This document shows, piece by piece, positions 770-39,798 of a stretch of 64,000 nt of DNA. The notes under the pieces are model-generated. The model saw only the letters and a program-made list of their open reading frames with translations. It made no database searches and was not told the origin of the DNA. The stretch spans positions 9,982,001 to 10,046,000 of the forward strand of contig OX597823.1 of NCBI GenBank assembly GCA_951406725.2, read 5' to 3'. Position 1 is the first letter of the stretch, and each line of letters opens with the position of its first letter. The DNA is from Octopus vulgaris (Eukaryota). A program made the position numbers and the translations under genes.

Positions 770-1155
770 TATTCGCAAAAAATAACAAAAGAGGAAGACG
801 GGAGGTGTAGACAACAAACAGATGTATTAGTATAACGCTCGGGAAGTGAAAAAGCCTTTAACGTTTCGAGCCTATGCTCTTCCACAGAAAGGAACACAGA
901 AAGAGACAAGGAGAGAAAATAAAGAATGTATAGTGGCTAGCGATCTATCATGGCGAATGCCGGGCTGAGGGTTTACACAGGAGAGCTAGGGAGAAGGGGA
1001 GATAATAAAGTAGTGGTGATCCCAAAACGAAGGTGTGCGTACGTGTGTATAAGAGAGTTTCTATGTGAGCGTGGAAGAGGGCTGGTGATCTTGACGTATG
1101 CGTGTGTGTGTTTGTAGGTGTGAAAATGTGGGTCTGTGAAGTGGTCAGTGCTGCC
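770..1155 (-). mobile_element. Penelope-like element 3'/pLTR remnant (family PLE-1), ending in (TA)n
   Basis: The reverse complement shares long blocks with 23690-23863 (ccatgatagatcg.tagccacta...gaagagc.taggctcgaaacgt) and with 39376 (agcactgaccact), which lies downstream of a GIY-YIG-type C-terminus. Confidence 0.7.
855..892 (-). ncRNA. Minimal type I hammerhead ribozyme-like motif (atypical core CUGUGGA)
   Basis: Minus strand reads CCTTT-CTGTGGA-A GAGC ATAG GCTC-GAAA-CG-TT-AAAGG: 5-bp stem I, 4-bp stem II and a palindromic ACGT stem III, as in PLE minimal hammerheads. Confidence 0.6.
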
Positions 1156-1928
1156 CTATCTCTCTCTCACACACTCTCACTCTCTTTCTCTATATATACA
1201 CACACACGTATATTTACACAAATTTGTGTCTATGTATGAGCATGTGCATATGCATACGCCAGAAATAAGAGATTTCCATCAGGACTATTGGACACACCAA
1301 CGTAATCTTTAGTGTAAGCACAGGAATGGCATAACCAAGTATGACTCATAAGGTATATAGTTTCGACATGGTTTCTTCTTTTGCCTGGGCATCCGCTAGA
1401 GTGTGACACAGGGCAGATATGACTTTGTTTTTACCAAAAGAGACAAATATTTCGCTGCGGTAACTGAGTGAATTCGCCTTTAGAAGCTGACATTTGTCAC
1501 AAACATATTGTAGTTAACCTAAAGTTCCCTTATACCTAGACATTGCTTTGCGGTTTATACTGCGGAGTTTTTTTCTGACATGCCATTCAATTAATGCAAC
1601 TCAGTCAATGTTGCTGGTCGCATTTTAGCTAAAGCTGTAGCTTTAAATCTGTTCATAGTTACCTATTTCCTATTAAATACGGATAAAGAGCTAGAAATGC
1701 AGCGTCTGGGAATCCCATAGAGGGCAACACTTAGCAGATATTGTAACTAACCCAAAGTTCGCTAATGCTTAAAGACTGCTTGGAGCTGATACTACCGAAT
1801 ATATGTTTGTGTGTGTATGTTTGTGTTTATGTGTATGTATTATGTAAGTATGCATGTAAGTATGAATGTCTCCCTCTATTTTTGTTCCGAATCATTGCGT
1901 TCACAGTTAAAATTTTGTGAGGTCTTAC

Positions 1929-2055
1929 CTGCACGGTGAAAAATAACCCGTCACTGTTTATTTTTTTGTGTGAGCTTGAATGGAATTCATTCAGGCGAAT
2001 TCCCTTCAGCCAGGTTTGAGGATATCTTTTCCATTCTCTCTCACTAATCTCAGAG
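1929..2055 (-). CDS. Candidate internal coding exon of an unidentified host gene (SEISEREWKRYPQTWLKGIRLNEFHSSSHKKINSDGLFFTVQ)
   Basis: Minus strand has a branch-like actaat, then the pyrimidine tract ttgtattcttttcaccactttaaatAG, a 127-nt exon open in one frame, and a strong donor CAG|GTAAGA. The sequence is not repeated in the window. No partner exons were found. Confidence 0.4.
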
Positions 2056-2239
2056 CTATTTAAAGTGGTGAAAAGAATACAAATTAGTAAAAAATAAAAA
2101 TTAAAATCAGAGCATACGGGAAAGAGATATGAAATCGATATAAAATAGTAATATTTTACACAAAGTAATAAAGACTAAATATTATTTTATTCTTGTTAGA
2201 CTCACACAGTATACACTTTCGACATGGTTTCTTCTTTTG

Positions 2240-2670
2240 GCTATGCTGGAGCACCGCCCTTTGTCGAGAAAATCGACCCCAGGACTTATTCTTTGTAAGC
2301 CTAGTATTTATTCCATCGGTCTCTATTGCCGAACCGCTAAAGTTACGGGAACGTAAATAGAAAAGCATAGTTTGTCAAGCGGTGTTTGTCAAGCGGTGGG
2401 AGGGGGGATACAAACAAACACATACATACATATACACACACACACACATATATATATATGTGTGTGTGTGTGTGTGTGTGTGTGTGTGTCTGCGTGTGTG
2501 TGTATGTGTGTGTGTGTTTGTGTGTGTATGTCTTCTTTCAGTTTCTGTCTACCAAACCCACTCACAAGGCTATACCAGAAGGTACTTGCTGAAGGTGCCA
2601 CGCAGTGGGACTGAACCCAGAACCATGTGCTTGGTAAGCAAGCTACTTACAACACAGCTACTCCTGCGCC
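2240..2670 (-). mobile_element. tRNA-derived SINE family A (internal microsatellite; possibly octopus OK-type)
   Basis: Head GGCGCAGGAGTAGCTGTGTTGTAAG...GGTTCTGGGTTCAGTCCC (A/B boxes), internal (CA)/(TA) tract, shared 3' body; tail truncated. Confidence 0.9.
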
Positions 2671-3820
2671 TATAGGCACGCACACACACACGCGCGCGCA
2701 CAAATACAATACATACATTGATACTCCTACTCCTCCTACTCCGCATCCTCTGCCTACTCATCCTACTACTACTACTACTACTCATGATATTATTTTGTTC
2801 TTATTTTTTGCTCATTTTTTAACTAAGAAATATGTGAAAGGATTCAGCAGACACCAAAGTTTCAGCTTCACTAATCTCAATAGATTAAATGTTAGAAGCT
2901 AAAAATATTGGTTGTTGCTTTTGAGATATTACAAAAAAAAAAAAAGGAAAAAAAAAAAAAAACGATATATTCCTCAGCTGTACAACTTTCCACATATTTT
3001 AAGAAAATTAATAACATTCAATACGGTATGTATTTAAAATTCTGCAATTTGTCGAATTAACAGTGTTCCAATTCCAATATACATTTTATAATTTTATCTA
3101 ATTTTCGGCATTATATTTTCCATGTTTACTGAGTGTTACTCACTTTCTATCTGTCTTTAATTTACTTTATTCAGCAGTATACAATTTTATGTACCCCGAA
3201 ACACAAACACACGCTATATGGTTGTATATGTACATGCATATATAAACAGATACATACGCATATGTGTGTGTGTGTGTGTGTGTCTGTGTGTGTGCGCGTG
3301 TCTAATGGGTAGTTGGCACCTGTTTATGGTTAGGATGTGAGTTCTACGATTTTATTTTCCCGATACGTATAGCGTTTCTGTTTCCTTGGTGATGAAAGAG
3401 TAGAGTAGATCACCACATCGAAAGGAACTTTTGAGATCTCTGTTCAAAGAATTAGGATGTGCTTGTTGTGTAGTGTCTAAAGAGTTTGCGAGGAGATGGT
3501 GAACAGATATACAATGGAAAAGGAAAACTGAATGAGATGGTTACCTCAGGCTGTAGGAAGCAAAGTGAATACCCAACCATGGACCATGAAAATCATTTAA
3601 CAATTAACGTACTGAATACTCTCTCTCTCTCTCTCTCTCTCTCTCTATATATATATATATATATATATATATAATGATAAATCTCAGAGCGAGTTATAGC
3701 CCCTCCTGGGGCTACAAACTACAGTAGCATCCACCCTTAGGGGTTAGCCATATTAAAATGGCAAATATACGTCACGATATATATATATATATATATATAT
3801 ATATATATATATACAATAAT

Positions 3821-37937: not shown

Positions 37938-38330
37938 TAGGAGTGGTTGTGTGGTACGTAGCTTGCTTACCAACAACATCGTACCGGGTTCAGTCCTACT
38001 GCGTGGCATCTTGGGCAATTTGGTAGACAGAAACTGAAAGAAGCCCGTCGTATATGTATATATATATATATATATATATATATATATATATATATATATA
38101 TACATATGCGTGTGTATATGTTTGTGTGTCTGTGTTTTTCCCCATGAACATCGCATGACAACCGATACTGGTGTGTTTACATCTCTGTAACATAGCGGTT
38201 CGGCAAAAGAATACGTACTAGGCTTACCGAGAATAAGTCCTGGGGTCGATTTGTTCGACTACGGGCGGTGCTCCAGCATGGCCTCAGTCAAATGACTGAA
38301 ACAAATAAAAGTACAACAGAATAAAAGAAT
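37938..38330 (+). mobile_element. SINE family A with deletions
   Basis: Family A head, microsatellite and tail are recognisable. Confidence 0.85.
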
Positions 38331-38391
38331 ACGTGTGTGTGTGTGTGTGTGTGTGTGTGTGTATGTATATCTGTATCAATCTATCTATCTA

Positions 38392-38498
38392 TTTCATTCT
38401 TTGCAGTTCTTTTAATTGTTTCATTCATTTGACTGCAGCCATGTTGCAGCACCGTCTTTAGTCGGACAAATCGACACTGGGACTTATTCTTTGTAACC
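38392..38498 (-). mobile_element. SINE family A 3' fragment, inverted relative to the adjacent copy
   Basis: tttcattcatttgactgcagccatgttgcagcaccgtctttagtcg is the reverse of the family A tail. Confidence 0.8.
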
Positions 38499-39044
38499 CA
38501 TCTTTTGAACATAGAGTTCTGCGTTGAGCGTTTGATACATATACATACATATATACATACATACATATATATATATATATATATATATATATATATATAT
38601 ATATATATATATATATATATATATATATATATATATATATATTCGAAAAAACACCTTTTATCAATTCAAAATGAAAAATTAAATTACACCATCTAAAAAT
38701 TACATATAATAGAAATATTAAATATAAGATAAAAAATATATATGTATGTATGTATGTATGTATGTATGTATCTATGTATGTATGTATGTATATATATATA
38801 TAAAATTACTGTTAAGAAAAGCTGTGATACGTGGCATTCAGTTCCTTGGCGGATGAATAATGCATTGAATACTAAAAGACGTGTACATAGGACAAGCACA
38901 GTAGGACCCTAATTTGTCATCAGTCTTCGATCGAAATACTACTATTTACTTGCATACCTGTAATGATAAGACTGAGAACTTCGCCTATCGATCAAACAAA
39001 ACGATACACCCCCACAAACACATATATATGCACGCATAAACATA

Positions 39045-39798
39045 CCTCAGATTCGGCAATGACACCGAGTTCACCCTATTTCCACTCTACCAGTCATTCA
39101 CTGTAACACCTGTCTGTGTTCGGATTGTCATTGTTGCACAGGGGCCATCCGGACTCCAGTCTTTGCCATGAACAAGAATTAATCTTCTCTCTACGCTCCT
39201 TTGTGCTACATGGGCTCAACTCCCCTCCTTTCTTCATCTGACACCTAATTCTCTCTTCATTGATACCAACCCACCCTATCCCACGGACCCTGCCCACCCC
39301 CACATCACCACTCCTGCCCCACTTCCCCCACACCAACCTCGCCTCACATCACCCAACACCACTCCACACACTCTAGCACTGACCACTCACCAGCACCCAC
39401 ACCATACACCAGCACCCGCACACCCACATACTATCCTCTGGTCATCCACACACCCACTCGTTACAAGCGCACATCCATACCTTACAAACTCACCCACCCA
39501 CACATATACAATCTCTCATACATACACATGCACGCGCACCTTCATTTTGGGATCACCAATACTTTATTATCTCTCCTTTTTTCAACCTATCCTTTCAAAC
39601 ATTTTTTCCCAGCCAGTCACCATGCTTGAATGCTAAATCCACAAATCATTTTCACTCTCTGTTTATTTTCTCTTATTCCTTTCCGTTGAAGAGCGTAGGC
39701 TCGAAATGTTAGAGCATGAAACTAATACACTTCAAACTAATACACTTGATTGTTATTCATACACCTGTCTTCGTCGTTTATTCTCTGTACATTTTAAC
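39045..39798 (+). mobile_element. Penelope-like element remnant: GIY-YIG endonuclease C-terminus + 3'/pLTR region (PLE-1)
   Basis: 39167-39241 translates HEQELIFSLRSFVLHGLNSPPFFI*, matching the PLE E..(W/L)I..L.(T/S)..P.GLN end motif. A hammerhead-like motif lies at 39678-39715 and the element ends in (TA)n. Confidence 0.8.

Follow-up and report, generated by a model that had tools for sequence, protein, structure and literature searches.

Hammerhead-shaped motifs in TA-flanked insertions of Octopus vulgaris and their probable origin as 3' ends of Penelope-like elements

We analysed a window of 64,000 nucleotides (nt) from Octopus vulgaris (contig OX597823.1, positions 9,982,001 to 10,046,000), in which a first-pass annotation had placed seven hammerhead ribozyme motifs in modules embedded in (TA)n. 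These modules, four copies of a family A (A1–A4) and the single insertions B, C and D, reside in TA repeats. They are very probably the 5'-truncated, mostly decayed 3' ends, or pseudo-long terminal repeats (pseudo-LTRs), of Penelope-like elements (PLEs) that bear an endonuclease and belong to two or more kinds. Hammerhead-bearing PLE stubs in TA tracts have already been described, so the arrangement itself is ordinary. The new point is the replacement of A by U at core position 6 (A6U) in the abundant family A. This family has spread widely despite a core change expected to cripple cutting, with the other core positions kept, and is thus a natural test of what hammerheads do in PLEs; Craig 2021 (PMC8557442) asks whether they merely parasitise their hosts. 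Descriptors based on a CUGANGA core, and Rfam, miss family A altogether.

Architecture of family A

The family A motif has a U-rich 5' flank, a 4-bp helix I, an extra base after A9, a G10.1–C11.1 pair and a palindromic ACGU. The set that characterises the minimal PLE hammerhead outside the core (extra base, G10.1–C11.1, GAAA, palindromic 15.1–16.1, H17 and short helix I) is present. Region 751–1180, which contains A1, was aligned with contigs, not raw reads, of four public runs (of 24), three of DNA and one guessed to be RNA; this comparison covered family A. At position 855, 97–99% of the public-run depth differs from A1, so the stem I given in the first-pass annotation as CCTTT/AAAGG is a 4-bp stem in the family and its fifth pair is private to A1.

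The 5' ends of the copies are staggered and reach up to the open reading frame (ORF). Public-run depth declines toward the 5' end of the family, as with 5' truncation, and in A1 it drops near 1152 with CA-rich loose ends. There is no tandem arrangement in the four copies and no clear inverted arm in A1 and A2, the two that were checked. At the other end, 15 contigs of the guessed-RNA run extend from the family A 3' end into (TA)n.

A 16-nt block lies about 30 nt 3' of the motif (820–835, minus strand, in A1; 39719–39747 in A3, where it is tandemly duplicated). It falls in the zone of greatest public-run depth and is a candidate recognition signal.

An endonuclease remnant links family A to PLEs

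The longest copy, A3, contains a decayed C-terminal part of a GIY-YIG endonuclease (Table 1). Compared with 1.84 billion proteins, its frame at 39044–39235 matched three relatives, all of them unnamed fragments (E values between 1.5e-11 and 7.8e-7). One of these, P0004, is 60% identical to the A3 frame over 53 residues. In the Atlas, P0004 lies closest to a GIY-YIG cluster (score 0.95), 42% of whose members have PF01541; the GIY-YIG assignment rests on P0004, and the A3 fragment itself gave no Atlas result. The order of the domain, a stop, an untranslated region of about 440 nt and the motif indicates that the endonuclease is C-terminal, and family A is therefore not a Naiad. By way of P0004, family A has the C-terminal GIY-YIG domain followed by a 3' repeat that marks endonuclease-bearing (EN+) PLEs. 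The first-pass proposal of PLE termini that target TA is thus borne out, directly for family A through this remnant and by architecture for B, C and D.

On this sequence evidence, family A appears to belong to the canonical PLE clade with a C-terminal endonuclease. By eye, two His and a Cys pair in decayed form survive in P0004, and Hydra-type Cys motifs are absent from the A3 end; the combination that marks a Hydra endonuclease (no CCHH; CxxC and CxH near the end) was not seen in family A. Judging from the end of the protein, family A may be Neptune-like. No copy in the window reaches the reverse transcriptase. Word-index protein searches gave no match to P0001 or P0004 among longer proteins, one fragment at near length and no solved structure. 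A protein-seeded locus search gave nothing in viral contigs and a single bacterial match (L001), which was dropped as chance, and the family A core pattern had no matches in metagenome and viral contigs.

Uracil at core position 6

All four window copies have the core CUGUNGA, and so lack the A6 of the minimal PLE hammerhead. The relaxed core of the first-pass annotation, CYGWNGA, had masked this U. In the register used here, stem I abuts the core and N7 falls on a variable site; an alternative register (U3-N4-G5-A6-A7-G8-A9) was rejected, with stem I then lying off the core and the variable site on position 4.

Region 751–1180 is represented by 19,611, 20,284 and 16,522 contigs in the three DNA runs, which carry three organism labels, and by 5,229 contigs in the run guessed to be RNA. 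Among the 40 of 97 differences listed, whose changes are not phased, none is at 884, the position of U6 in A1, and the weakest reaches 19% in its best run. If the differences are ranked by share, canonical A6 would account for less than about 19% of depth, with two to four A>T differences per run beyond those listed. A6U appears to be the majority state of this very abundant family. A6 is present in all 56 representatives in Fig. S3 of Cervera and de la Pena 2014 (PMC4209133) and in all rows of File S2 of Craig 2021 (PMC8557442). No A6U hammerhead was found in published titles and abstracts, a set that leaves subscription papers and Repbase outside, or in the text of the supplements to Perreault 2011 (PMC3088659), the drawn Fig. 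S7 excepted.

Fold prediction pairs U6 with A15.1 in all four copies (probability 0.53–0.99) and so closes the core; this pairing would favour a closed hairpin. A6U would make the motif a weak cutter at best; among published variants, A6C cleaves at <0.1 per minute, and substitution at position 6 is reported to give low activity (Perreault 2011, PMC3088659).

We read the family A motif as derived from a hammerhead and still under constraint. Across the four window copies, with gaps counted, identity reaches 0.81 within the motif, compared with 0.53 and 0.59 for its flanks. The polymorphic sites within 856–891, among the differences listed, are 860 (H17, U/A), 875 (loop II) and 883 (N7, G/U/A); all three fall on the seven free positions of the 36 (P about 0.005, with positions defined post hoc). 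Loose contig ends pile up at the borders of the motif, at 894 in each of the four runs and at 856 in run X13. Other observations argue the other way. The motif is not poorer in polymorphic sites than its surroundings (3/36 against 7/56 and 3/54 in the flanks, among the differences listed). None of the stems carries compensatory changes: all four copies have the same stem II, and stem I is broken in one copy and wobbled in two. The downstream 16-nt block is as conserved as the motif (0.81).

Two accounts of this pattern, both confined to family A, can be weighed. The first, to which we give a little less than an even chance, is that the ribozyme died in an ancestor through A6U and that the motif is retained as a hairpin without catalytic activity or as a signal bound by protein, the elements transposing without self-cleavage as Naiads do. 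It accords with the U6–A15.1 pairing, which turns the core into an extended hairpin, with the low activity of position-6 variants, and with the spread of Naiads without canonical hammerheads, set beside the great abundance of family A under three organism labels. In a plain hairpin, however, C3, G8, A9, G12, A13 and U16.1 would be free, yet among the differences listed none of them varies and H17 is U or A but not G. The second account is more speculative, and we consider it rather unlikely. The source elements of a hugely amplified family would have fixed A6U before the three organism labels split, with the rest of the core selected while N7 and H17 drifted. U6 would then lock a monomer hairpin (U6–A15.1, G5–C15.2, Y4–G16.2) that a dimer or a protein opens, giving either an off-switch hammerhead or a non-cutting recognition signal.

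Modules B, C and D

The four families gave no blastn cross-matches, but in architecture they are not the four unrelated modules of the first-pass annotation: there are two kinds, A on one side and B, C and D on the other. B, C and D have TA on both sides in all three cases, and each has the hammerhead near the 3' end with a pseudo-palindromic stem III of 9–10 nt that is typical of Hydra PLEs. The stem III unit is 9 nt long and of the 4+1+4 kind in all three, with at least one defect in each window copy. The left arm of C ends inside stem II. This architecture indicates that B, C and D are probably Hydra-clade PLEs. C4 is found in the core of both C and D.

B (3820–3997) and C (9119–9255) are predicted to form long, near-perfect hairpins (-99.8 and -96.1 kcal/mol, respectively) that bury the motif. 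If transcribed, these hairpins could be substrates for double-strand RNA enzymes. A motif common to the tails of C and D, picked out by eye, was discarded as not significant (p=0.17). Across 21 pairs, values below 0.05 were obtained for X1–X2 (0.001) and for module E against its own reverse (0.037) only.

Table 1. Coordinates of family A, modules B, C and D, and their parts in the window
Feature	Position	Strand	Description
A1	751..1152	-	3' ~400 nt (3' untranslated region / pseudo-LTR) of putative C-terminal-endonuclease PLE; 3' end adjoins (TA)n 715-750
A1 motif	856..891	-	minimal type I hammerhead-shaped; stem I 891-888/859-856
A1 core and stem II	887-881; 879-868	-	core 887-881 (U6 at 884), then the extra A (880) and stem II (879-868)
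A1 3' core half	867-860	-	GAA 867-865; palindromic ACGU 864-861; H17 860
A2	23667..23862	+	5'-truncated; motif 23735-23770, core 23739-23745, H17 23766
A3	38803..39798	+	longest copy, 996 nt; (TA)n on both sides (tracts end 38802, start 39799)
A3 GIY-YIG remnant	39044..39241	+	decayed C-terminal part; one internal stop; ends ~440 nt before motif
A3 motif	39679-39714	+	core 39683-39689, H17 39710
A4	54431..54600	+	5' end adjoins (TA)n; 3' end approximate and not flanked by TA
A4 motif		+	core 54511-54517, H17 54538; AGA replaces GAA; fails descriptor
B	3814..4070	.	inverted pair of 3' ends: arms 3820-3894, 3929-3997; 73-nt one-sided tail 3998-4070
B minus-arm motif	3828-3888	-	G3, H17 3833
B plus-arm core	3940-3946	+	intact; G12-A13 lost; fails descriptor
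C	9052..9255	+	motif 9185-9222; core 9189-9195 with C4; H17 9218
C inverted arm and tail	9123-9179; 9052-9122		perfect 57-nt inverted arm 9123-9179; 71-nt one-sided tail 9052-9122
D	33763..33965	-	motif 33798-33860; core 33854-33848 with C4; H17 33804
D inverted piece	33884-33896		13 nt, plus 69-nt overhang; weak, may be chance
Descriptor matches			A1, minus arm of B, D, unrelated site 35024-35094

Several other structured or coding remnants were noted in the window. A fifth TA-flanked family (474–714 and 9310–9565) has an inverted arrangement, 9393–9478 against 9481–9565, and a one-sided tail of about 80 nt, and contains no hammerhead motif; it probably represents PLE ends whose truncation lies 3' of any motif, or else an end of the Naiad type. 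A TA-flanked small-hairpin module at 3674–3776, with a partial second copy at 62060–62114, has no hammerhead match. The segment 34482–34620, beside (CA)n, is structured and contains GAAAC and a near-palindrome; it has no recognisable first core half and no descriptor match. Decayed gag-like frames at 9897–10816 and 12159–12500, with one weak zinc knuckle (PF00098, E 0.011, below the cut-off), are probably remnants of long interspersed element (LINE) ORF1.

Descriptor and covariance-model searches

The hammerhead descriptor was tuned after the motifs had been seen and permits one core mismatch. It matches the window 4 times; in 200 shuffles with the TA tracts held in place, the mean is 0.155 and the maximum 2. 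Matches within 110 nt of a TA tract number 3, compared with a shuffle mean of 0.03 and a maximum of 1. About 19% of non-TA positions lie that close to a tract, as do all four family A copies, which were found by blastn, blind to TA. A descriptor with the loosest core gave 2 matches (shuffle mean 0.63, maximum 2 in 30 shuffles), and one with a strict CUGANGA core and intact helices gave none in the window.

The hammerhead shape is present at all seven positions of the first-pass annotation, with most copies damaged and a strict core with intact helices in none. Its further statement that each module carries a type I hammerhead fold holds in part: the descriptor rejects A2, in which stem I is broken, A3, in which U replaces C15.2, C, whose stem II is 2 bp in the window copy, as well as A4 and the plus arm of B. 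A whole-window Rfam search contained no hammerhead among the 150 of 385 matches listed.

Origin of the insertions and their relation to microsatellites

The window is AT-rich (GC 35.6%) and contains 63 merged (TA)n tracts totalling 2,964 bases. All seven insertions contact (TA)n on at least one side, in agreement with the first-pass placement of every motif in or beside (TA)n. From published PLE biology, the PLE GIY-YIG enzyme would nick a (TA)n tract, and reverse transcription would begin at the RNA 3' end and mostly halt early. Sometimes an inverted second copy would be added, so that short hammerhead-bearing stubs would accumulate in TA tracts. Two motifs on the same strand of an intact tandem precursor RNA would base-pair by way of the palindromic stem III, with weak cleavage following H17; minimal hammerheads are described in that literature as inactive as monomers and weak as dimers. 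The window copies are most likely inert, because they are single and mutated, with A2, A3 and A4, which share a strand, lying 15–16 kb apart and with B and C buried in hairpins. Their function as ribozymes is doubtful.

The suggestion that the modules may seed microsatellites is not supported. Copy A2 lies within the internal TA linker of another repeat, whose halves flank it, and the modules thus use existing microsatellites. Of the 63 tracts, 11, with 580 of 2,964 bases, adjoin the seven insertions. These observations fit insertions that use, and perhaps lengthen, existing TA tracts. The nested insertion around A2 (23430–24138) is an abundant two-part repeat with 11 left/right pairs in the window by our own count of blastn matches; its internal TA/TG linker holds a 32-nt fragment (23627–23658) in addition to A2.

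Some results count against an origin of these modules as hammerhead-bearing PLE ends. Rfam, which the first-pass annotation had named as a check, gave no hammerhead match for any of the four modules at E<=10, and the predicted minimum fold is not a hammerhead for A1, C and D. Pfam gave no match for the A3 fragment or its relatives, and an upstream A3 frame with the word 'YIG' gave no alignment to P0004. B, C and D are single insertions of 200–260 nt without an ORF, their clade being assigned from RNA architecture, and the tails are 69–73 nt long here compared with 30–40 nt in Craig 2021 (PMC8557442).

The modules B, C and D might instead be independent non-autonomous units, retrozyme-like or similar to short interspersed elements (SINEs), that multiply as short hammerhead RNAs with the help of PLE enzymes in trans. 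Their small size, lack of coding sequence and TA flanks would suit such units, and animal retrozymes have been argued to derive from PLE ends and also occur as monomers. We nevertheless find this improbable: no module is tandem, the C arm that ends in stem II and the 13-nt piece of D follow the pattern of random 5' truncation, and family A has staggered 5' ends up to the ORF. The first-pass alternative of non-autonomous retrozyme-like elements likewise lacks support, given the absence of tandem modules and the ORF sequence in the longest A copy. A loose descriptor might also match palindromic, AT-rich repeats by chance; as an account of the folds this is the least credible alternative, and it is largely refuted for family A. 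In its favour are the absence of an Rfam match, the post hoc descriptor with its unrelated match and the excess of the loosest core, which stays within the shuffle maximum; against it stand a site behind a GIY-YIG remnant, an architecture matching published PLE hammerheads and variation restricted to N7, H17 and loop II.

Comparison with known systems

In Octopus vulgaris, 190 PLE families make up 6.83% of the genome, according to an account whose available passages mention no ribozymes (PMC13282606). Family A most resembles the minimal hammerheads of metazoan PLEs (Cervera and de la Pena 2014, PMC4209133), being likewise of type I with a U-rich 5' flank, a short helix I and an extra base after A9. 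Also in common are G10.1–C11.1, the GAAA-C-G-U-H palindrome, a 3' repeat behind the ORF and mostly single truncated copies. The Neptune motif of Acropora digitifera (Fig. S3, PMC4209133) has the layout of family A. Family A differs from these hammerheads in U6 and in its 4-bp helix II. The A6C and U4C core variants of Perreault 2011 (PMC3088659) are also single substitutions that keep low activity; they are rare single examples, whereas the change in family A is to U and is apparently the majority state.

B, C and D share with Hydra-clade PLEs (PMC8557442) the stem III, a distance of 35–110 nt to the element end, (TA)n insertion and inverted truncated copies. Of the 26 Hydra rows in File S2 of Craig 2021, 17 are written 4+1+4 and three more have 9 nt, so that 20 match the 9-nt stem III unit of B, C and D. 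Insertion into (TA)n is listed for 26 of 27 Hydra families, including Hydra-1_Obim of Octopus bimaculoides, and Hydra-2_aMil has a stem I as in module C (PMC8557442). Inverted 5'-truncated copies and one-sided tails of 30–40 bp are described PLE features (Craig 2021, PMC8557442). The differences are tails of about 70 nt and the lack of a recovered ORF in B, C and D, C4 in C and D where all File S2 rows have U4, and sequences that by eye differ from the six novel Hydra consensus ends (PMC8557442).

Cephalopod Naiad PLEs (Craig 2021, PMC8557442) resemble the modules in (TA)n insertion, inverted arms and tails. Unlike the modules, they have an N-terminal endonuclease and no canonical hammerheads, and a 17-nt motif taken from the 3' end of Naiad_Ovul was not matched anywhere in the window with 3 mismatches allowed. 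Retrozymes are defined by tandemly repeated units, each with its own type I hammerhead (PMC7229834; bioRxiv 10.64898/2026.07.22.740005), an organisation that the modules lack. Animal non-LTR retrozymes are similar in being short, non-coding, PLE-related and equipped with a type I hammerhead (PMC7229834; bioRxiv 10.64898/2026.07.22.740005); the modules differ in the absence of tandem arrays and of a canonical core, in their staggered 5' ends and in the ORF remnant of A3. B, C and D are new members of a known, probably Hydra-type kind, and family A descends from the minimal PLE hammerhead but lacks A6, so that it is a variant of that class rather than a member.

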